A stretch of 64,000 bases of DNA from Bdellovibrionaceae bacterium UBA6776 (GTDB taxonomy: Bacteria; Bdellovibrionota; Bdellovibrionia; Bdellovibrionales; UBA1609): contig DKGG01000039.1 of assembly GCA_002453155.1 (NCBI GenBank), forward strand, positions 67,714 through 131,713, given 5' to 3'. The position numbers and the translations under genes were made by a program. This document shows, in pieces, positions 3,218 to 54,766 of the stretch (its first letter is position 1; the number at the start of each line of letters is the position of its first letter). The notes below the pieces were generated by a model. The model had not been told where the DNA came from and did no database searches. It saw nothing but the letters and a program-made list of their open reading frames with translations.

Positions 3218-3945
3218 GTACTTTTCTGTGACTTATAATAAGTCATATAGGCAGCAACCACTTTGTGTTCATCCAAACCAAGCATTCGGCAGTATTGAAC
3301 AACGATTCCTCGAGTAAACACCTGAACAGGCAGGCGGTCCAATTCATTTTCCTCCAGCGCTCGGAGAGTGGACCGACTTGTTTTCATGGCTTCGCTGAGT
3401 TCTTGCAAAGGCACATTTTTGTATTCTCGAATTTTTTGCAGAAAAGATCCGTCGCACTCTTCCACGTCTTCAATGTCTTTTTCGAATTGAGCGTCGACAG
3501 TATAAGTGCTAAACCGAGTTCGCTCCTGACCTTCAGGAAGTGGATCCACCTTTCGATGAACTTTCACAATCCCGGTCCAACCTTCTTCGGCTCTCCCAAC
3601 CTTTCGTTCCTCCACAAGCGAGTCTTGCTTTTCAGGAGATTTATTTGGATGGGAATGATAAGCATTTGGTGTTTCATTCTTCAATTCTTCATCGTCGAGC
3701 AAACCTAGCCTTAAGTCATAGGCGCGTTTCCGACTGCGATTGCTTAATGTGGAATAAGCTTCATCCACAAGCCTTAAGAGTTCACGCGCTTCCTCTTCGG
3801 TAAACATGGAATAAATCGCAGCGCTGTGGGGCGAATAGGTTTCTCTAGCACGCTGATAGGCTTCGTAAATTTCCGTAGGCCCAGCGCTGGGGGAGATCTC
3901 TAAGAGATCATAAAAAGAAGTTTCTTCCTCTTGGTACATGCTCAT
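3214..3945 (-). CDS. J-domain-like protein with a C-terminal RodZ-like helix-turn-helix
   Basis: The N-terminal FYDLLEISPSAGPTEIYEAYQRARETYSP resembles a J domain but has no HPD tripeptide. The C-terminal LQELSEAMKTSRSTLRALEENE...VFTRGIV resembles an XRE/RodZ HTH. Confidence 0.6.
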   Translation of the reverse strand: MSMYQEEETSFYDLLEISPSAGPTEIYEAYQRARETYSPHSAAIYSMFTEEEARELLRLVDEAYSTLSNRSRKRAYDLRLGLLDDEELKNETPNAYHSHPNKSPEKQDSLVEERKVGRAEEGWTGIVKVHRKVDPLPEGQERTRFSTYTVDAQFEKDIEDVEECDGSFLQKIREYKNVPLQELSEAMKTSRSTLRALEENELDRLPVQVFTRGIVVQYCRMLGLDEHKVVAAYMTYYKSQKST

Positions 3946-3951
3946 CCTTAA

Positions 3952-4935
3952 TCACGATACCATATTTTTTGGCTGAGATGGATCGGCCAATTTCCGGGCC
4001 ATTGCCATTATTTGAGCGTACAAGTGACTGTAAGGATTCGCTACCAAAAGGTGCTTTTTTTGGCGTAATGACTGCCATACCGCATTATCGTAACTAAGGG
4101 CTCCCAAAAATTCACAAGGCAGTCCGAAGTGCCTTTGGCAAACGGATTTGATTCCCTTTCCTAAGTTTCGATCCTGTGCAGTTCGAATTTGGTTAAGTAC
4201 AATTTGAAACTGTAACTGGTTCATTACCTCTTTGAGATCTTTGGAAATCTCAGGGAATTCCTTATGGAGGGTATTTAGAAGATCCCTTGGGGACTTGATG
4301 TTGTGATTGTTCTTAGTGATGTGTTCAATACGTTGATCAATGTCTAAGCGACTTCCATAGCGACGAATCTTTCGATAAAAGACAGCTTTCATAAACCGGT
4401 AGGCATTCTCAATGCTGGAGGGCTCTGGGGTAAAGACCACAACGTGATGTTGAGCCATGAGGAAATAATCTAAAGTGGAGGTATGAGTTCCCGCACCTAA
4501 ATCCAAGATAATGTAATCAGTCGGGTAATTGTAAAGAGCAGAAAGCAAACGAGATTTCTCAGCGTCCGAGATGTCCCCATTGTAAAGCCCCTCGGAAGCG
4601 CCCGAGATCAAATGAAGATTATTTTTCATTGTGGGGCTGATGACATCGCCGATTGTGAGGTTGGTGTCTTTCATGAATTCATTGATGCCTTTGCTCGGAA
4701 GACCTTCACCGAGCCAAGTGTGAAGATTCGCGGCTCCAAGATCCATATCAACCAACAAAGTTTTATGGCCCATCTGAGCGAGAAAATATGCCAAGCTTGA
4801 ACTGAAAAATGATTTTCCAACGCCGCCTTTACCAGCACCTACAGCAATAATAGTAGATTGAGGCGCTATTCGGCCTCTAAGATCCACCACCTTCTTCTTT
4901 GTTGCTGTGCTCAACTTCGGACTCGCTTTCATCAT
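3952..4935 (-). CDS. MinD/ParA-family P-loop ATPase
   Basis: Deviant Walker A GAGKGGVGKS, followed by LLVDMDLGAANLH and ILDLGAG. Confidence 0.8.
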   Translation of the reverse strand: MMKASPKLSTATKKKVVDLRGRIAPQSTIIAVGAGKGGVGKSFFSSSLAYFLAQMGHKTLLVDMDLGAANLHTWLGEGLPSKGINEFMKDTNLTIGDVISPTMKNNLHLISGASEGLYNGDISDAEKSRLLSALYNYPTDYIILDLGAGTHTSTLDYFLMAQHHVVVFTPEPSSIENAYRFMKAVFYRKIRRYGSRLDIDQRIEHITKNNHNIKSPRDLLNTLHKEFPEISKDLKEVMNQLQFQIVLNQIRTAQDRNLGKGIKSVCQRHFGLPCEFLGALSYDNAVWQSLRQKKHLLVANPYSHLYAQIMAMARKLADPSQPKNMVS

Positions 4936-27017: not shown

Positions 27018-28010
27018 ATGCAAGAAATCAAAGTCCTCATTCTGGGAGTTCTTATTGCTTTCGGAGGGCAGACCTTTGCTCAATCCAATTCCGCTTTAAC
27101 AGGTGCCGCCGCTCAAAGCCTTCGACAAAATGCCTTGGCGGAACGTCATGCCAACACCGAAGAAGTTTCTACCGCTTCGGAAGCTGTTCGCGAAGAAATC
27201 AATACGGCTCCCACCAGTGACTCTGTGAACCAATCTGCAAGCAAAGGAAAAAGCTCTCAAGGCGCAGGACAAATGATGAATATGTTGGCTGCCGCGGCGT
27301 TAATGGCAGCCTGCGCAGCATCTTGTCCGAAGTGCCAAATGGAATTGTGTGCAATGGGCGCATTGGCCGCAGCTCAAGGTGCTCATGATGGGGATGCCGC
27401 AAATCAATCTGCGGATTCTTACAAAGCCAGCCAATACAAATCACACGCTTTAAATCCAGCTGCCGTTCCTGGGAGCGGAGAAGCGGCCTATACGGATCCT
27501 CAAATTGCTGAAGGAATGAATAAGTTGAAAGATGCCGGTTACAAAGTGACGGAAAAAGGAGTTACATTTCCCGACGGGACTTTTCAGCCTGCATCTGCAT
27601 TCAATTCGGGAAGTTCCATGCTTGCCGCGGGAATGGATCCGGATGCTGCAGCTGCGGCCGACAACGTGATGAAAAAGATCAACAAAGAATTGAGCCAGTA
27701 CAGTGTTTCCTCCATGGCGGTGGATTCTGCCGGTGGATCGGGATCCGGTGGCGGCGGAGGGTCCTATGGAAGTTCCGATTACAGTTCTTTTAAAATGCCA
27801 AAGTTCAAAAGTCCTTTCGCCAACCAAGACAGTAAAAAACTTTTGGCAGGAAAGTCTGTCATGGTCGGTGGCGAACCCATTGGCGTAAAAGGTGACAACC
27901 TGTTTGATATGGTTCATCGCGCTTACCAGAAAAAACGAAATCGTCGCCAATTTATGGAGTCTTCTAAATCGGGGCGCCTTCCTGCAAGCATGACGGAAGA
28001 GGGGCTATGA
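27018..28010 (+). CDS. Secreted low-complexity protein (Ala/Met/Gly/Ser-rich, one Cys cluster)
   Basis: A GAGAGAGG RBS precedes the ATG. Signal peptide MQEIKVLILGVLIAFGGQTFAQ; QMMNMLAAAALMAACAASCPKCQMELC segment; GGSGSGGGGGS run. Confidence 0.5.
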   Translation: MQEIKVLILGVLIAFGGQTFAQSNSALTGAAAQSLRQNALAERHANTEEVSTASEAVREEINTAPTSDSVNQSASKGKSSQGAGQMMNMLAAAALMAACAASCPKCQMELCAMGALAAAQGAHDGDAANQSADSYKASQYKSHALNPAAVPGSGEAAYTDPQIAEGMNKLKDAGYKVTEKGVTFPDGTFQPASAFNSGSSMLAAGMDPDAAAAADNVMKKINKELSQYSVSSMAVDSAGGSGSGGGGGSYGSSDYSSFKMPKFKSPFANQDSKKLLAGKSVMVGGEPIGVKGDNLFDMVHRAYQKKRNRRQFMESSKSGRLPASMTEEGL

Positions 28011-29347
28011 GAATTGTTCTCTCCATTCTTCTTTTAACAGGATCATTGTCGGCGTTCGGGCAAGCGGCTCCGGGTGCCACAGAGGTCGCTCCTGGAAGTG
28101 GCGGCAACCCTCAGCTTCAACAAGAGTTGCAAGCCGACTTGGATCAATGCGGAAACCAAAAAAAGCAGGCAGAGCTGTGTTGTGGAGATCCCATGCAGTG
28201 TGCCTCGGGTATGAGTGAAGAAAGCCAACAGCAGCTTTCTCAATTGATGGCCATGGGTGCGATGGGAGCTGCGGCCTATTTGAGTCAAAAAAAATCCGAT
28301 GGAGAAGGCGGAGATGACAACTCTGCCATGGCGGCAAGTTTACCGATGATTTGCCAAATGATGAGTGCCATGGGAAGTGCAGGAGCCGGTGCAAATGCGG
28401 GCGCTGCAGAAGTTTGTGATAAAGAGAGAAGCACTTGTGATTCCATGTGTGGAGAGATTGCGCAAAAGTGGAAGCAAAAACAAACCGAATGTCAGGCGTC
28501 GTCTTGCGCGGATGGTGAGTTGTTAAGTCAGGCGGTCACTCAATTTGATTCCACCATTTCAGAGTGTAAAAATCTGCAAGCCAATTCGGAAAGCATGAAC
28601 AAACAAGGAAAAGAATCGCAGCAAGCCGGTGGAGCCGGTGATTTTTGCAATCAGTTGGCCTCCATGATGACTGCGTCCAAGAAAGAGCCCACTCAGCCAC
28701 AGATTGATTGTAACGATCCGGTTCAGTTTCAAGCCAACCTTCAAATGTGTGTGGATTGCCAAAAGAATCCCGAAGACATCAATTGCGGAAAGGTTGCCGC
28801 GGTGAAAGGACCTAAAGCAGGGTTTGATGAAGGCAAGGTTACGGATTTGTCTTCGTTCAATACGGGATCGATTGATGGTTTGGATCAAAACGCAAAGTAC
28901 GGAGGGTTTGAACCCGTGGCCAGTCAATCGGGGACGGTCAGCGGAAGCGGCGGTGGAATTCCTGGTGGCGGAAATGATGGAAACTTTGGAGATCCAGCGC
29001 CGGCAAATGCAGGTGAGCGATCTGGCATCAATACGGACATTTTAAGTGGAGAGCGTGGAGGCGGTGGCTACTCTGCGGCCAGTGCAGGAATGGATGTGGA
29101 TCCAAGTGCCGGATTTTCTGGTTATGGTGGGGGAAGCGGAAGCAATGATGATGTGTCTGGATATAAGGGGATGGACTTGAAGAAGTTTCTTCCCGGTGGA
29201 GCTTTGGACCCATCTCGTCGTCTAGCGGGAGCACTTGTGAGCAGTGGTCAAATCAATCCAAAGAATCAAAATATTTTTGAACGCATTTCTTCGCGAATGA
29301 AAATGGTTTGCGGAACAAAGCGCTTGAAAGACTGCGGGGGTAAGTAG
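28007..29347 (+). CDS. Secreted Cys-rich, Gly-rich protein
   Basis: ATGA start/stop overlap with the upstream ORF. Signal peptide MRIVLSILLLTGSLSAFGQA, about 20 Cys, Met/Ala-rich segments and a Gly-rich C-terminal half. Confidence 0.55.
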   Translation: MRIVLSILLLTGSLSAFGQAAPGATEVAPGSGGNPQLQQELQADLDQCGNQKKQAELCCGDPMQCASGMSEESQQQLSQLMAMGAMGAAAYLSQKKSDGEGGDDNSAMAASLPMICQMMSAMGSAGAGANAGAAEVCDKERSTCDSMCGEIAQKWKQKQTECQASSCADGELLSQAVTQFDSTISECKNLQANSESMNKQGKESQQAGGAGDFCNQLASMMTASKKEPTQPQIDCNDPVQFQANLQMCVDCQKNPEDINCGKVAAVKGPKAGFDEGKVTDLSSFNTGSIDGLDQNAKYGGFEPVASQSGTVSGSGGGIPGGGNDGNFGDPAPANAGERSGINTDILSGERGGGGYSAASAGMDVDPSAGFSGYGGGSGSNDDVSGYKGMDLKKFLPGGALDPSRRLAGALVSSGQINPKNQNIFERISSRMKMVCGTKRLKDCGGK

Positions 29348-29377
29348 TTCAGCTTCGGCCATCATGGGCTTTCTTCG

Positions 29378-29700
29378 CATTTCTCCCTCGGACGATTCAC
29401 ATCCAGGCTTTTTGAATCTCTTTCTCAGAATCTCAAAGTTCATTGAACCTGACACACCCTTCCGTGGGTTCTTCTACATGTACAGCAAACTTTTCAAATT
29501 CAATTATTTCCTCGAGGAAGCACGCCCATCCATGGGCTCACAAGTCTTTGCCCTCCGGGCAAATCACTTCCTGTTTCCTTGAGGTTTACTCGAGGAAGCA
29601 ATTGAACCCGAAAAGTTACTTTACCGAAGAACCGCTATCCTTTGTGGAGGTTGTGGTGGGCGCAAAGAACCTGAAGATTGTTCCTTCTTTGATCGCCGCT
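29378..29700. repeat. Left inverted-repeat arm (contains a 67-nt insertion)
   Basis: Manual reverse-complement alignment to 30846-31093. Mismatches are sparse in the inner ~200 nt and more frequent toward the outer end. Confidence 0.7.
29512..29578. mobile_element. MITE/REP-like 67-nt insertion flanked by a TTTCC direct repeat
   Basis: It is present in the left arm but absent from the otherwise colinear right arm. It contains the palindromic core GCCCATCCATGGGC and the hairpin TTTGCCC-TCC-GGGCAAA. A related copy lies at 35783-35833. Confidence 0.55.
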
Positions 29701-29843
29701 CGATCACTAAAAACGATAATGTTCGAATTAGGTTCGGAATATCCGGGCACTGAATCCCCAAGTTGGATGACGCAAGTCTTCTTAGACACTAATAAACATT
29801 GCGTCTTAAATTTTAAATACTGAATGCGGCAAGGATGTTTCAA
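29635..29843 (-). pseudogene. Possible decayed HNH gene remnant (or the mirror image of the right-arm ORF end)
   Basis: The minus strand encodes ..SGDQRRNNLQVLCAHHNLHKG-stop, nearly identical to the intact HNH C-terminus. Upstream of it, FEHYRF-stop-stop-SSGDQ aligns with LDHISPVRRGGDQ but is broken by stops and a frameshift. Confidence 0.35.
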
Positions 29844-29896
29844 GCTTCACGAAACAAGAACGCACTTTGGTCTTTTTTTTATTTATGAAATATATT

Positions 29897-29925
29897 TTGA
29901 CAGGGGTTTTGTGTCGAAATTTATT
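29897..29925 (+). promoter_or_regulatory. Candidate sigma-70 promoter in the AT-rich leader of the HNH gene
   Basis: TTGACA, then 17 nt, then TTTATT, about 190 nt upstream of the ATG. This is a pattern match only. Confidence 0.2.
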
Positions 29926-30115
29926 TTTTAAACTCTCCACAAGATCTTTCTGAGCCATTGTCTAAAGTCACAGAGGCTTTGACCTAGGGAGCTTTAGAAA
30001 AAGACAACAAGGATGCTGTTGAAATTTTTAAATGTGCAAAGATCAAATTTTACGACTTAAAATTCACAAAATAAAACCCGTCATATTGTTCTCTCAACTT
30101 TAGAGGGAGAAAATC

Positions 30116-30910
30116 ATGGAACTTCACAAAGAGTTGCTTGCACTAAGGCTTAAAGAAAAACGAATCACTTCAGAAATTTTAACCAAACTTCAAGAGATGG
30201 AAGATTCTAGGGATTATCTTAGAATGGGGTATTCATCTTTGTTCGATTATTTGGTGAGAGGTCTCAATTATTCTGAGTCCTCAGCCTACCAAAGACAGTC
30301 TTGCGTTCGACTTTCTCGGGAACTTCCCGAAATTAAAAATAAAATCGATCAAGGAGTTCTTACGCTATCCACAGTGGCCACAGCCTTTAAGCACATTCGT
30401 AAGAAACTTGTTGAAGAAAAGCGTCAAATTTTAAAGTCATTAGAGGAAAAGTCGGCTCGTGAAGCGAAGAAGATGTTTTTAGAACCTATGCCCGCCATTA
30501 AAATCAAAAAGACGGAGCATGCAGATAAAGTACTTTTGAGATTGGAACTGACCCACGAACAAAACCAAAAATTAGAAAAACTAAAGGCGCTGAAGTCACA
30601 CAAGTACAACATCGAAAGTCTTCTAATACATCTGATAGAAAAGGAACTTAAATCTTTCGAAAGTGTTCAGATGAAATCTTCTAAATCCAAGGAAGACTTT
30701 AACGAGCCAAGATCAAAAAATCCTCGTCAAATTTCCAAGCGCCTAAGAAATGACGTGTTGAAGACCGCAAACTACAAATGTCAATTTCCCGGGTGTGAGT
30801 CTGACCACTTTCTTCAATTGGATCATATTTCTCCCGTTCGCCGAGGCGGCGATCAAAGAAGGAACAATCTTCAAGTGCTTTGCGCCAACCACAACCTCCA
30901 CAAAGGATAG
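30116..30910 (+). CDS. HNH endonuclease with a DUF222-like N-terminal helical domain
   Basis: GGGAGA RBS. The C-terminal CQFPGCESDHFLQLDHISPVRRGGDQRRNNLQVLCANHNLHKG is an HNH motif. The N-terminal GYSSLFDYLVRGLNYSESSAYQR..LSRELPEI..G.LTLS is DUF222-like. Confidence 0.85.
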   Translation: MELHKELLALRLKEKRITSEILTKLQEMEDSRDYLRMGYSSLFDYLVRGLNYSESSAYQRQSCVRLSRELPEIKNKIDQGVLTLSTVATAFKHIRKKLVEEKRQILKSLEEKSAREAKKMFLEPMPAIKIKKTEHADKVLLRLELTHEQNQKLEKLKALKSHKYNIESLLIHLIEKELKSFESVQMKSSKSKEDFNEPRSKNPRQISKRLRNDVLKTANYKCQFPGCESDHFLQLDHISPVRRGGDQRRNNLQVLCANHNLHKG

Positions 30911-31093
30911 CGGTTCTTCGGTAAAGTAACTTTTCGGGTTCAATTACTTCCTCGAGTAAACCTCAAGGAAATAATTGAATCTGAAAAGTTTGCTGTACAT
31001 GTAGAAGAACCCACGAAAGAGTGTGTCGGGCTCAATGAGCTTTGAGATTCTGGAAAAAATATTCAAGAAGCCTGGATATGAATTTCCTCAGAA
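30846..31093. repeat. Right inverted-repeat arm, overlapping the last 65 nt of the HNH ORF
   Basis: Reverse complement of the left arm. It ends 4 nt before the stop codon of the convergent murU-like gene. Confidence 0.7.
30912..31011 (+). other. Extended ~100-nt imperfect hairpin immediately 3' of the HNH stop codon (candidate structured RNA or DNA recombination site)
   Basis: Nested stems: GGTTCTTC/GAAGAACC, CTTTTCGGGTTCAATTA/TAATTGAATCTGAAAAG (with two G-U pairs in the sense orientation) and TTCCTCGAG/CTCAAGGAA. Confidence 0.45.
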
Positions 31094-31096
31094 AGG

Positions 31097-32146
31097 CTAC
31101 AGGCCTTCGATATCTTTCAACTGGCCATCAGAAGTCAGAACCTTCTTTATTGCACCCATGTAGAATCCAGAAATGGAATCTGGCAAAGGGTGTTTCCAAC
31201 GGTAAAAAGTGCTAGGAGCTTGAACGTCAATAAATCGAATCTCATCGGACTGTGCCGGTTGAGGTCCAGGAGAAATCAAACACATATGGTGTTGAGGATT
31301 GGTAAATCGCAATCGATCCAATTTTTCATAGCGGAAAATATCATTCCGTTGATAATTTCTCCAACCGGGCTGGAATCGATCCATGATATCGACCAAGTTC
31401 CATTGGGACTGATGATCTTTCAGAACTCGCATCAAATCTAACTGTGCCTGAGCCAGATCTTTCAAATTTCCGGTCTCATAAAAACGCACATCTTTAGATT
31501 TAAAGATCTGAATCCATTCCTTCTTTTGCAGAGCCTCTGCAAACACATCCAAAAAAATATTTTGCGAATGGGAATGAATATAGGAATAGATGTCCGGAGA
31601 GCAAATCATCACAGAGGCATAGTGCAGACACAGGGCATTTTCAGAGGGTGCGGATGTGCCAACACCCAAAAATCTTCCAGACTCCGAATGCCAGACTCCT
31701 GAAAAATCCTTCCCAGCTCCAGGATGAGGAATGCACAACACCGTTGCAAGAGCTTTGCGCTCGTTGTGAAACAAAAGCATCTCCTCAAGGACTTGAGGAT
31801 TTTTTGTCAAAATCACCCCATCGCCATTTGCAATCACAAAAGGTTCTCTAGAATTCAACGCATCCATCTTGAAATGATTCAAGGGAAGGGCACTTCCCAA
31901 AAGTGTTTCTTCATGATGAACATGAAAACGATAGTTGGGATGAAGGTGTCGTTTGAAACTCTTCACAACCGTGTCTGGCAAATGGTGGGTGTTGATGTGA
32001 AGATCTGTCAGATTCAGACTTTCCAAAAGCTGCAAAGGGTATCCCCACATGGGAACGTTCAGCACGGGAACAGCAGGCTTGGCGATATCATGGGTCAAGG
32101 GTTGAAGTCGTCGACCTTCACCCGCACACAGAATTAAGGCTCGCAT
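31097..32146 (-). CDS. murU: Sugar-1-phosphate nucleotidyltransferase, MurU-like, with a C-terminal extension
   Basis: N-terminal ALILCAGEGRRLQPLTHDIAKPAVPV nucleotidyltransferase motif. It is adjacent to, and overlaps by 13 nt, an AmgK-like kinase gene. The MurNAc-1-P specificity is inferred from that pairing only. Confidence 0.65.
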   Translation of the reverse strand: MRALILCAGEGRRLQPLTHDIAKPAVPVLNVPMWGYPLQLLESLNLTDLHINTHHLPDTVVKSFKRHLHPNYRFHVHHEETLLGSALPLNHFKMDALNSREPFVIANGDGVILTKNPQVLEEMLLFHNERKALATVLCIPHPGAGKDFSGVWHSESGRFLGVGTSAPSENALCLHYASVMICSPDIYSYIHSHSQNIFLDVFAEALQKKEWIQIFKSKDVRFYETGNLKDLAQAQLDLMRVLKDHQSQWNLVDIMDRFQPGWRNYQRNDIFRYEKLDRLRFTNPQHHMCLISPGPQPAQSDEIRFIDVQAPSTFYRWKHPLPDSISGFYMGAIKKVLTSDGQLKDIEGL

Positions 32147-35582: not shown

Positions 35583-35782
35583 ATCTTCGACTCCTTTTCA
35601 CAAAGTGACTTAATTATTATCGTCGAAAATTTGAACAACTTTACAGGACCTGGACTTATTGCCTGTAAAGATCCATGACTTGGTCCAGTCCAGATTTGAG
35701 TTTCTTCGCCCGTGCCAAAAATTTCATAAAATCTCAATTGCACAAAGGCCATGGCAAAGCAATTTGGCTATTAGAAATAGAC

Positions 35783-35833
35783 CCGCCCATCCATGGGCTC
35801 ACCAGTATTTGCCCTATAGGGCAAATCGCTTCA
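35783..35833. repeat. Second copy of the REP/MITE-like element seen at 29521-29571
   Basis: CCGCCCATCCATGGGCTCACCAGTATTTGCCCTATAGGGCAAATCGCTTC aligns with the 29.5-kb copy at roughly four-fifths identity by eye. Confidence 0.55.
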
Positions 35834-35884
35834 CGCTTACTGGAGGTCTCTTTCTAAAGCCAAATTACTATGCCAATGTCTTTG

Positions 35885-36007
35885 CGAATAAAGAATATAA
35901 AAAGGGCCCATGGATGGGCGGGTCTGAAGCTGCGAGCAAGTAGCTTTGAAATACCTCAGGCGAATTAAGAATATCAAAAGGGCCCAAAGGGATGGGCGGG
36001 TGTAAAG
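35885..36007. repeat. Two ~46-nt direct repeats (35885-35930 and 35961-36007), each carrying the inverted core GGGCCCATGGATGGGCGGGT
   Basis: CGAATAAAGAATATAAAAAGGGCCCATGGATGGGCGGGTCTGAAG versus CGAATTAAGAATATCAAAAGGGCCCAAAGGGATGGGCGGGTGTAAAG. The core is the reverse complement of the 5' end of the element at 35783. Confidence 0.6.
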
Positions 36008-52643: not shown

Positions 52644-53663
52644 TTAATCTTCGATTTGGAAATGTGAGCGGTTCTGGTCCACAACCTTGAAGACATGAAT
52701 CAAGGCTTCACTGATTCTTCGAAGAGAAGAGACTTCGTCGTCTCCACAAAAGGCTGCGGGGCAACCGGTTCCCATTTCAAAACCTGGGATAAGAGTGGTT
52801 TTGTTTTCGGTGCGCTTCTTCCAGTGTTCCTGACTCTCTCGAAAGAAGATTTTAAAATCTTGAGAGAAAACCCATTTTCCATTTTTAAAATCCAAAGGTT
52901 TCGGAACATACATTCCATAAATGGAGTAATACCCTAAGACCGCGGGCTTAAACACAACGGCAAGTTGTTCCACCAAGCTGAATTTTGAATCCTGCTGAGG
53001 GAGCAATAAAATTTTAAGCCATTCCTGATCAGATATTTCTAAAGGGCGATCGACGGACAATAGGGAAATGGCATGGACATAGGAGAAAAATGCAAACTCC
53101 ATGGTGTCGATCATTTCGAGTTTGGTAAAACTGTATCTTTGAAGAATTTTACTGTCTTCGGCAGAAAATATCGTTGGGAGAGCCGGCCGTGAAAAGTTGG
53201 CCAAATATTTCAAAGACAAAATGGTTTTGGTCATAAGAGATCGACTTCTTTCAACACTGCTTGCGTAAAAAGAGTGTGCATGGCCCGAAATCACATTCAA
53301 GCTGTGCTCAAAAAACTGCCCGTGAAATTGGTATTCTTGAAGGCCCGTTAGTGTTGAGATGGGAGGATTTCCTGTGTATTTGTGGGCTCTCGGTTGAAAC
53401 CTGGAATAAATGATGGATTCGGGATGATCTTGAAACCACTCCAAGATCTCTTTTTCAGAGGATTCTTTGGAGGCTTCCAAGTGTTTTCCAATGGGTTCAA
53501 AAATTTTTGTGAGTTTTCCTCGAACTTCGATCTTTTCAGGAGTAGACAGTAGTCGGGAGCAGAAACTTGGAAACTCTGTATCGGCGAAAGCTGAAAGTGG
53601 GATTGAACCAAAGATTAAAAAGAGGTTCAAAAGACATCTTGAAAAGATCTGTTTTCCAATCAT
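52644..53663 (-). CDS. Secreted protein of unknown family (paralog A)
   Basis: Signal peptide. Roughly half of the positions are identical to the product of 53780-54766 (by eye), including GNPP..TLTG..E.QFHGQF, MEFA..SYVH.ISLLS.DRP, EWLKILLLPQ and GTGCPAAFC. Confidence 0.6.
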   Translation of the reverse strand: MIGKQIFSRCLLNLFLIFGSIPLSAFADTEFPSFCSRLLSTPEKIEVRGKLTKIFEPIGKHLEASKESSEKEILEWFQDHPESIIYSRFQPRAHKYTGNPPISTLTGLQEYQFHGQFFEHSLNVISGHAHSFYASSVERSRSLMTKTILSLKYLANFSRPALPTIFSAEDSKILQRYSFTKLEMIDTMEFAFFSYVHAISLLSVDRPLEISDQEWLKILLLPQQDSKFSLVEQLAVVFKPAVLGYYSIYGMYVPKPLDFKNGKWVFSQDFKIFFRESQEHWKKRTENKTTLIPGFEMGTGCPAAFCGDDEVSSLRRISEALIHVFKVVDQNRSHFQIED

Positions 53664-53779: not shown

Positions 53780-54766
53780 TTAAGGTCGAATTGTAGAAAA
53801 ATTCTGGTCCACCACTTTGAAAACATGGAACAAAACTTCGCTGATGGTCCTCAAAGAGGATTGTTCTTCACTGTGACAAAAGGCTGCAGGACAACCGGTG
53901 CCCAGCTCATATCCGGGGCGCGTGGAATTGGCTTTCGAAATTCTCCACTTCTCTTGGCTCTCGCGAAAGAAGGTTTTGAAATCTTGAGAAAAAGTCCATT
54001 TCCCATCATGAAGCTCCAAAGGGTGGGGAACGTACAATCCATTCATGGAGTTAAAGCCCAAGACTTCGGGTTTTAAAATGATCGACAACTTTTCAAGGAG
54101 GCTTAAAGACTCACCCTCTTGAGGCAGCAAAAGAATTTTTAGCCACTCTTCATCTGAAGATTCTTCGGGACGGTCATTGGACAGCAGGGAAATTCCATGG
54201 ACGTAAGAGAGGTAGGCAAACTCCATGGCATTGACCAGGTCTAACTTGGTAAAGCTGTGATTCTTTAAAAGATTGCGATCCTCTTCAGAAAGTTCTCCGA
54301 AAAGTGCCGGCCGTGTGTGATGACCCATAAACTTTAAGGCCAATATGACTTTTGTTAGCAGGGGGATGTTTTCAAATGAGCTGCCGGCATAGAAAGAGGC
54401 CGAAAATCCTGAAACCAAAACGGATCCATCCATAAGGAATTGACCGTGGAATTGAAACTCATGCACTCCGGTCAGCGTGGTAAAGGGTGGATTGCCGCCG
54501 TAAATTTCAGAGCGAAAAAGAAATTCGGCTTCTTCCTGGATGCGAGGTCGGGCCGCAAACCATTTTAATATTTCAGCCTCGGAAGTGTCTTTGAGCTTCT
54601 TCACGTGAAGCCCTATAGGTTCAAAAACTTGGGTCAATCGATCTCGAATTTCAATGCGCTTCGCGGTGGATAAGGCCTCTGTGCAGGAGGTCTCGCTCGA
54701 GTTCGTGGCCCAGCAGATGGGTGCGGCGTGGAACACCAAAAAGAAGTAAAATATCAGGCTCTTCAT
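53780..54766 (-). CDS. Secreted protein of unknown family (paralog B)
   Basis: Signal peptide. It is colinear with paralog A. Confidence 0.6.
   Translation of the reverse strand: MKSLIFYFFLVFHAAPICWATNSSETSCTEALSTAKRIEIRDRLTQVFEPIGLHVKKLKDTSEAEILKWFAARPRIQEEAEFLFRSEIYGGNPPFTTLTGVHEFQFHGQFLMDGSVLVSGFSASFYAGSSFENIPLLTKVILALKFMGHHTRPALFGELSEEDRNLLKNHSFTKLDLVNAMEFAYLSYVHGISLLSNDRPEESSDEEWLKILLLPQEGESLSLLEKLSIILKPEVLGFNSMNGLYVPHPLELHDGKWTFSQDFKTFFRESQEKWRISKANSTRPGYELGTGCPAAFCHSEEQSSLRTISEVLFHVFKVVDQNFSTIRP

Follow-up and report, generated by a model that had tools for sequence, protein, structure and literature searches.

An HNH nuclease gene bracketed by opposed copies of its own REP-like tail in a Bdellovibrionaceae genome

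DUF222-HNH repeat units such as REP13E12 of Mycobacterium tuberculosis have been known for decades, and the mycobacterial DUF222-HNH proteins are about 400–480 aa long. HNH genes also occur as free-standing homing endonuclease genes, of which the HNH mob genes of T-even phages are an example. The REP13E12 loci are of undefined function and rank among the most frequently gene-converted loci of M. tuberculosis in a long-read study (PMC13061034); a prophage attachment site has been reported for REP13E12. The locus described here is a DUF222-HNH-type repeat unit in the Bdellovibrionota, with inverted flanks that resemble repetitive extragenic palindromic (REP) sequences; its kind is known but unexplained. 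It lies in contig DKGG01000039.1 of Bdellovibrionaceae bacterium UBA6776 (assembly GCA_002453155.1), within a stretch of 64,000 nt (positions 67,714 to 131,713 of the forward strand) that is called the window below and from whose first letter all coordinates are counted. The gene, at 30116–30910 on the plus strand, encodes a 264-aa HNH endonuclease with an N-terminal helical and a C-terminal HNH domain, and it is bracketed by inverted-repeat arms. An initial annotation, made from the letters alone, had observed this bracketing, and the observation is confirmed.

Make-up of the arms and the insertion site

Repeat search and self-BLAST show the arms to be reverse complements of each other over two segments: an inner one of 126 nt (29574–29699 with 30846–30971, 97% complementary) and an outer one of 123 nt (29395–29517 with 30961–31083, 89% complementary). 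In pairwise alignment each arm is continuous except for a 67-nt indel between its two segments. The left arm occupies 29395–29699 (minus strand), and the right arm occupies 30846–31083 (plus strand), where the last 65 nt of the open reading frame (ORF) are followed by a 173-nt tail that lacks a 67-nt core. The initial annotation had correctly placed the start of the right arm 65 nt inside the 3′ end of the ORF, but it began the left arm at 29378 and carried the right arm about 185 nt past the stop; its leader of about 270 nt was too short, the distance from the left arm to the ATG being 416 nt. Self-comparison of the window yields no other inverted pair at E < 1e-5 and no extra copy of the arms or of the HNH gene: only 63 nt of the core recur, at 35784–35847. 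The identical arrangement is present at 100% identity in independent Tara assemblies (ENA, JGI), which excludes an artefact of assembly in this record.

The arms are two opposed copies of the cassette's own tail, that is, of its last 21 codons, the stop codon and the REP-like repeats. The parts follow one another in a set order: the last 65 nt of the HNH ORF, an 18-nt spacer, a long imperfect hairpin, and about 93 nt akin to a portion of a further unit of this type. At the inner end of the left arm (29635–29699, minus strand), codons 244–264 and the stop survive with their frame intact in reverse complement: the fragment reads SGDQRRNNLQVLCAHHNLHKG and stop, the gene itself GGDQRRNNLQVLCANHNLHKG and stop (tblastn, aa 245–264 at 29697–29638, 95% identity, E = 1e-7). 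Three differences separate the 65-nt ORF fragments of the two arms, two of them synonymous. The same tail, with the same 67-nt core, follows a paralog of the gene (P0002, in contig L095) and is 93% identical to the left arm.

The repeats in the tail are composite, with a conserved core of about 65–70 nt held in the loop of a variable stem of 30–48 bp. Both arm hairpins fold far better as DNA than shuffled sequence does. The left one (29488–29617, minus strand) has a stem of about 30 bp with the core at 29519–29589 in its loop (nhmmer, E = 8e-21; folding free energy −29.8 kcal/mol, z = −6.7), whereas the right one (30928–30990, plus strand) is a long imperfect hairpin equal to the composite repeat minus the core (−17.5 kcal/mol, z = −8.6; none of 200 shuffles folds as well). 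A 9-nt direct repeat, TCRAGGAAA, is present twice in the left arm (29507–29515 and 29574–29582, 67 nt apart) and once in the right arm (30963–30971). What looks like an insertion in the left arm is therefore better read as a deletion in the right: the core was apparently lost by deletion between the 9-nt repeats, to judge from their copy number, and both arms can therefore share one origin.

All of 29348–31096 is inserted DNA. These 1749 nt fill the junction between two host genes that lie outside the element and converge upon it, with stops at 29347 and 31097 in the ORF listing, as had been annotated: a 446-aa Cys-rich gene on the left (28007–29347, plus strand) and a MurU-like nucleotidyltransferase gene on the right (31097–32146, minus strand; Pfam NTP_transferase, E = 3e-15, with orthologs and synteny in agreement). 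The insertion is evident because relatives with the same gene order have the two stops 4 nt apart (L104) and 3 nt apart (L102). In L104 the Cys-rich protein has its ortholog in the 444-aa neighbour of the MurU-like gene (49% identity, E = 2e-102, with the alignment reaching the C-terminus). Both relatives keep the order ABC transporter, sigma-54 activator, 220-aa gene, kinase and MurU-like gene, and on the opposite side of the junction the Cys-rich ortholog and two more genes converge on it. A search for such empty syntenic sites had been proposed as a check on mobility, and it came out positive. The MurU-like proteins of these relatives, the closest available, are 46–49% identical to that of the window. 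No close empty site was found, the nearest MurU-like orthologs being at most 56% identical, and a base-by-base comparison of the junction is not possible. Other copies of the family likewise lie at convergent gene junctions.

The extent of the cassette can be seen in four copies from one metagenome-assembled genome (MAG 2_bin.16; L006–L009). These copies are 90–95% identical. The unit common to them is discrete and measures about 1.2 kb, starting some 310 nt before the ATG and ending about 80–110 nt past the stop, and it has no terminal inverted repeats. Several upstream blocks are conserved across lineages: GCCTACTAAACGTTGCGGC at about −275, then a T-run and TATTTGAC at about −218, and finally AAAATAAAAACCCATGGTAATGTTC at about −50, which resembles an extended −10 element with a ribosome-binding site behind it. 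The non-coding 5′ region in the window (29700–30057, plus strand) carries degenerate copies of these blocks, with motif-like stretches at 29789–29805 and 29845–29865 and TTTGAC at 29896–29901. The conserved proximal block that follows (30058–30115, plus strand) is a predicted promoter, with the −10-like TCATATTGT at 30081–30089 and the ribosome-binding site GAGGGAG at 30103–30109. In alignments, paralog homology begins at 30058–30060 in four independent loci. A fixed cassette end at −53 was considered on this account and rejected: the sharp onset of homology at 30058 marks a crossover within a conserved block, and diverged homology continues to about −330.

The 5′ region is non-coding, because its similarity extends over all frames of both strands; a small conserved ORF was rejected on the same grounds. 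RNAalifold gives 0 conserved pairs in the upstream region, and Rfam contains no matching RNA family, with only chance microRNA-like matches to the hairpin that fall far below threshold; a guide-RNA reading is therefore unsupported. Some copies have features of their own just upstream of the gene. In L088, at about 3940–4000, some seven tandem copies of the octamer CAAGAGAA stand directly upstream of the start codon of paralog P0008; this array could vary in length and alter the expression of P0008. In L095 (431–469), and at the homologous place in L002 and L086, a short upstream ORF (MVMFFQRKEDL) has a TGA stop overlapping the ATG of the main gene; this small ORF is absent from the window copy.

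Recombination and the origin of the arms

The reading favoured here, in which belief and doubt are about evenly balanced, is that of a selfish free-standing HNH cassette in a cluster of REP-like repeats, with arms kept alike and extended by recombination. The cassette, of about 1.2–1.4 kb, consists of its own upstream region, a predicted promoter, the 264-aa ORF and a hairpin-rich tail. It was inserted at a convergent junction that measures 3–4 nt in relatives, and sits in the middle of a cluster of REP-like composite hairpins. The arms would be a local inverted duplication of the cassette tail; recombination between them would maintain their similarity and push the repeat boundary into the ORF, in a manner comparable to the boundary shifts of plastid inverted repeats. 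The HNH nuclease would break DNA in or near sequences of the family, and recombinational repair from another copy would then transfer segments of the cassette, which would produce mosaics and occasionally new insertions in repeat-bearing intergenic sites. The homing-like copying step is presumed, as is the origin of the left arm by creep of the boundary.

The setting of the repeats bears on how the arms came to be opposed. In paralog loci of the same lineage, arrays of cores flank the HNH cassette on both sides, usually inverted upstream and direct downstream. The same minus-then-plus polarity is found in L122, a cluster at a convergent junction that has no HNH gene, and in eight of nine cases counted by hand the core lies antisense to the host gene pointing towards it. 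Since clusters without the gene show this polarity, inverted bracketing is automatic for a cassette that lies in the middle of a cluster. A metagenome scan turned up a true core at 21 loci, of which at least 12 carry an HNH gene of the family no more than about 500 nt away and at least five have none. In the paralog loci of 8.8 kb, no core is farther than about 900 nt from the HNH gene.

The core profile matches the window at two places only, 29519–29589 and 35779–35851. The latter belongs to a second repeat cluster without an HNH gene (minus strand, with partial copies near 35903–35921 and 35981–36000), in a 425-nt gap between the sigma-54 activator and ABC transporter genes that measures 125 nt in L104. 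A 19-mer, GTGAGCCCATGGATGGGCG, is found within about 70 nt of many contig ends in one other metagenome data set (L107, L112, L115, L118 and other Ga0208370 contigs). These contigs give no full match to the core profile, and the 19-mer is probably a related dispersed repeat of another organism that breaks assemblies. Farther along the window, an approximately 460-nt direct repeat with 70% identity (52672–53134 and 53802–54258) probably represents two adjacent paralogous genes.

Bracketing by inverted repeats is not confined to the window. It is present at six of the ten paralog loci of the window lineage: the window itself, L086 (163 and 191 nt), L088 (199 nt, extending into the ORF), L109 (356 nt, 88% identical, including 168 nt of the ORF, aa ~210–266), L120 and L125. 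The inverted ORF fragment of L109 is found again in L088 with an internal deletion; it abuts the conserved 5′ motif in L109 and lies about 15 nt from this motif in L088. Inverted copies of the 5′ motif stand downstream of the ORF in L086, L125, L139 and L157. Because ORF fragments and inverted 5′ motifs lie in the flanks, the boundaries of the repeats have shifted across both cassette ends, which is, by analogy, the behaviour of inverted repeats extended by recombination between their arms. Three loci in other lineages are also bracketed: L030 and L041 in one Bdellovibrio MAG, and L054 in another lineage, where the arm also follows a second, 5′-truncated HNH copy (L071). Bracketing of further copies is thus found in this lineage and two others, but not in most family members, at whose loci no flanking inverted repeat was found.

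The initial annotation had suggested that the arms might be long terminal inverted repeats of an HNH-only mobile unit. On this view arm, 5′ region, ORF and arm would transpose as a whole and the HNH protein would act on the terminal repeats or hairpins. The recurrence of bracketing agrees with this idea, as do the sharp ends of the repeats in L030, L054 and L041, the outermost 25 nt being identical in L030 and L054. The arms within a locus are also far more alike than the paralogs are to one another, and in the window and in L088 they reach the flanking genes. The lack of arms at most family loci speaks for the opposite, and so do the four copies of MAG 2_bin.16, which share their unit without any terminal repeat. 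No target-site duplication is present at the repeat ends of L030, L054 or L041, and the arm ends in the window offer only an imperfect CCTCRGA (six of seven positions), 2 nt away from each end. L054 and L071 remain homologous for about 200 nt past the repeat end; the repeat family of the arms also forms clusters of the same polarity without an HNH gene; and the window contains no second copy of an arm.

Nor was a transposase gene found in the inserted DNA: apart from the HNH gene, 29348–31096 contains no ORF that reaches 130 aa. Terminal inverted repeats are not conserved among the copies. The reported absence of transposase, integrase and recombinase genes holds, in that HNH is the only Pfam match of the ORF and none of the other ORFs, all below 130 aa and judged from the listing without a profile scan, looks like such an enzyme. 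With arms that are the cassette tail, most copies armless and no target-site duplication at three loci, the terminal-repeat interpretation is not supported: transposition of a repeat-bounded unit is unlikely, and the arms are probably not transposon ends. For annotation this is a caution, as long inverted repeats around a gene can stem from repeat clusters and recombination and need not be transposon ends.

Recombination among the paralogs has left its mark on several copies. From 30555 on, tail included, P0002 matches the window gene at 100% identity, but before that point at about 68%, and the truncation of L071 near codon 146 is homologous to this mosaic boundary. L002 and L003 share the same ORF and 53 upstream nt, which are joined to the 5′ regions of two paralog types and set in different chromosomal flanks. 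Such mosaic paralogs bear the sequence signature of gene conversion. The arms are 89–97% identical, although synonymous sites are saturated between paralogs, which means that the arms either arose recently or have been kept similar by conversion. The two break points near codon 146 are independent (window 30555; L054 ~4449 and L071 114), and this codon may be a hot spot of recombination or cleavage. Beside one of the paralogs, P0014, an IS30-like transposase gene (HTH_38, with a faint rve match) lies directly upstream in most assemblies (L003, L004 and L005, 2674–3627, minus strand); it is absent in L002, the left flank of which is entirely different.

The left arm has a further possible source, namely the stump of a second, head-to-head cassette, from a separate insertion or an inverted dimer, whose 5′ region and codons 1–243 were deleted. 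This is a possible but doubtful origin. Contig L094 would fit it well: an intact, inverted P0002 is joined there to the outer left arm of the window and the Cys-rich gene, at 100% identity save three single-nucleotide polymorphisms in the arm. The 67-nt core that the left arm has in common with the P0002 tail of L095 and that the right arm lacks would also fit, as would the two synonymous changes among the three differences in the 65-nt fragment, the longer inverted fragment of L109 and a 5′-truncated copy such as L071, which starts near codon 146. P0001 and P0002 do not differ at all in their 3′ halves (100% identity), which would be expected if they had been neighbours in an inverted pair.

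L094 is, however, a single contig of 1.7 kb, and its switch point falls within 56 nt that all copies share without a difference. It may be a true recombinant, and then a rare one, or else an assembly chimera; all long contigs show the arrangement of the window. The missing core of the right arm is explained by the deletion between the 9-nt direct repeats, which lets both arms share one origin, and independent truncations at several loci are less parsimonious than one recurring process.

Arms of this kind might also serve as a recombination-driven switch that flips the HNH gene, which is the least likely explanation and barely credible. Repeats of 300 nt at 89–97% identity suffice for homologous inversion, and some contigs break inside the cassette; every contig that spans the locus nevertheless has one orientation at 100% identity, and no recombinase gene was found. 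The only inversion-like contig, L094, has a different paralog type as the 5′ half of its gene and is not a simple flip, so that a simple inversion was rejected as its origin. The contigs that end inside the cassette come from other samples (L101, L097 and L100, at 29654, 30441 and 30458); two of these ends are 17 nt apart in the middle of the HNH gene, which suggests strain variants or a nearby repeat boundary.

The HNH protein and its relation to the repeats

The only Pfam domain in the ORF is HNH, at aa 227–263 (24.4 bits against a cut-off of 21.4), and the catalytic residues and zinc ligands are intact (C222, C227, D236, H237, N251, C256, H259 and N260). With a score above the gathering cut-off and these residues present, the protein is classed by sequence as an HNH endonuclease (PF01844); all 30 of 30 close members match the same profile. 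Its nuclease activity and its target are presumed. An AlphaFold2 model (mean predicted local distance difference test score 86.5) finds structural relatives for the predicted HNH domain only: the HNH nicking endonuclease 4h9d, which is the closest, McrA and Cas9. The N-terminal helical domain has no significant fold match and resembles ParB/Noc (ParB/HTH-like) folds weakly, with template modelling scores of 0.28–0.37.

The comparison with DUF222 and REP13E12 drawn in the initial annotation is reasonable by way of intermediate homologues, but a direct match is lacking. The window protein does not match DUF222 (PF02720) up to E = 1, which speaks against direct membership; one of the 30 close members matches at E = 0.037. 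Ten of 36 distant full-length homologues match DUF222, the best at E = 2.7e-6, while all 36 fit the family profile at E < 1e-43. The kinship is thus transitive only. In NCBIfam the best match is guided_IscB (E = 3e-9, 36.5 bits where the cut-off is 175), confined to the HNH part, and the defence-system models of PADLOC give generic HNH matches only.

The family is large and multi-copy. Its 161 close homologues, of 255–266 aa, all come from metagenome genomes of Bdellovibrionales/Bdellovibrionaceae, several with locus tags of one MAG, and a scan of species representatives shows that several Bdellovibrionia, complete Bdellovibrio genomes among them, have three to five copies each. Among 1.84 billion representatives of clusters at 50% identity, a profile search returns 1242 at E ≤ 1e-30 and 7488 at E ≤ 1e-10; among the best 150 matches listed, most are full-length, at about 260–340 aa. 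No full-length relatives are present in the viral contigs of IMG/VR, and a phage origin of the family was rejected for this reason. The ORFs are under purifying selection: the ratio of nonsynonymous to synonymous divergence (dN/dS) is 0.05–0.15 between paralogs and 0.05–0.07 between the window gene and paralogs. Synonymous divergence (dS) of the window gene from paralogs of its own lineage exceeds 2.5 or is saturated, and every copy examined for selection is intact.

The selection on all paralogs would be accounted for if the HNH protein served the REP-like repeats, as a counterpart of the REP-associated tyrosine transposases (RAYTs) and their REPINs: it would nick the hairpins and multiply or maintain the repeats, and the gene would be flanked by its own substrates. 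The proximity of a family gene to at least 12 of the 21 core loci, and of all cores to the gene in the 8.8-kb loci, is in keeping with such a role. Upstream cores are inverted relative to downstream ones, as REPs are around RAYT genes, and the weak ParB/HTH-like matches of the N-terminal domain and the nicking endonuclease as closest solved HNH fold point the same way. The HNH genes are multi-copy, though, whereas RAYTs are typically single-copy according to PMC5581495, and members in other lineages, together with L091 in the window lineage, lack such repeats. Even in L122 the cores are oriented according to the flanking host genes, so that inverted flanks need no HNH gene, and the sample is one 64-kb window plus short loci and not a genome. 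A repeat-servicing role is improbable.

A bolder proposal, which is also unlikely, would make the DUF222-like HNH protein a structure-specific nickase acting on the REP-like hairpins and on the 5′ motif CTACTAAACGTTGCGGC. Gene and repeat would form a self-propagating pair, and the breaks would drive conversion between arms and between paralogs as well as spread into intergenic sites that bear repeats. If true, this partnership of nuclease and repeat would give a testable mechanism for the unexplained REP13E12 and DUF222-HNH repeats.

Several points weigh against the selfish, recombining cassette that is favoured here. The left arm could instead be a truncated second cassette, since the data do not separate this from creep of the boundary. 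The perfect match of the outermost 25 nt of the repeats in L030 and L054 would also suit functional termini, and the link between HNH gene and core repeat may instead reflect a dependence of the repeats on the HNH protein. The empty sites come from distant relatives, with flanking proteins only 46–49% identical, and no recent insertion was found at base resolution. Finally, the paralogs are old, with saturated synonymous sites, yet intact, which suits long-term maintenance better than a typical decaying selfish element.

Comparison with known systems

A literature search found nothing relevant on a published association of HNH genes with REP-type repeats or on HNH repeats in Bdellovibrio. An integron gene cassette was considered and rejected: the hairpin at 30928–30990 has the form AAC...GTT, but its neighbouring bases, read by eye, do not fit RYYYAAC/GTTRRRY. 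No integron integrase gene was called beside the copies examined, each of which stands singly between host genes.

The IscB/IshB OMEGA systems share with the locus an HNH domain, that of the window protein being nearest the IscB/Cas9 type, and some 300 nt of conserved non-coding sequence ahead of the ORF. The resemblance ends there: the score of 36.5 bits lies well below the cut-off of 175, a RuvC domain is missing, the N-terminal part is unrelated, and for the upstream region neither an Rfam family nor a conserved base pair was found.

Free-standing homing genes are closer in several respects. Here too a self-contained nuclease cassette lies between conserved genes with a patchy distribution across lineages, and it would be expected to spread by a break and recombinational repair, with co-conversion of neighbouring sequence. 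In contrast with such genes, the HNH family is chromosomal and occupies many non-allelic loci per genome, its copies are old, diverged and intact, and no full-length relatives were found in viral contigs. The empty sites of distant relatives and the conversion tracts among paralogs are indirect evidence for homing of this kind.

With the RAYT/REPIN systems the locus shares a gene placed between opposed hairpin repeats of REP-like type that are also dispersed in intergenic regions. The enzyme is an HNH protein and not a Y1 HUH transposase, the gene is multi-copy and not single-copy, the repeats are concentrated near HNH genes, and many family members have no repeats; inverted REP-like flanks are the one feature held in common.

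The closest counterpart is the REP13E12-type DUF222-HNH unit. Both are dispersed multi-copy units of about 1.2–1.4 kb with one ORF, which encodes an N-terminal helical and a C-terminal HNH domain, and with no transposase, and in both the paralogs are hot spots of gene conversion (PMC13061034 for REP13E12, the mosaics for the present family). The window protein differs in its shorter length of 264 aa, in the lack of a direct DUF222 match and in the phylum of its host, and its cassette is flanked by inverted REP-like hairpin repeats. A very large DUF222-HNH-related family, of more than 1200 clusters at 50% identity, is thus multi-copy in the predatory Bdellovibrionota. No new mechanism is demonstrated by the locus, and its value lies in concrete handles on the open question of the DUF222-HNH repeats: an empty site, discrete cassette boundaries, conserved non-coding motifs, the tight association with hairpin repeats, and recurrent recombination break points at codon ~146 and in the −53 block, all of which help to make that question testable. 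The dispersed multi-copy unit of about 1.4 kb per genome that typifies REP13E12 has its parallel in the four 1.2-kb copies of MAG 2_bin.16, a likeness in the kind of unit.

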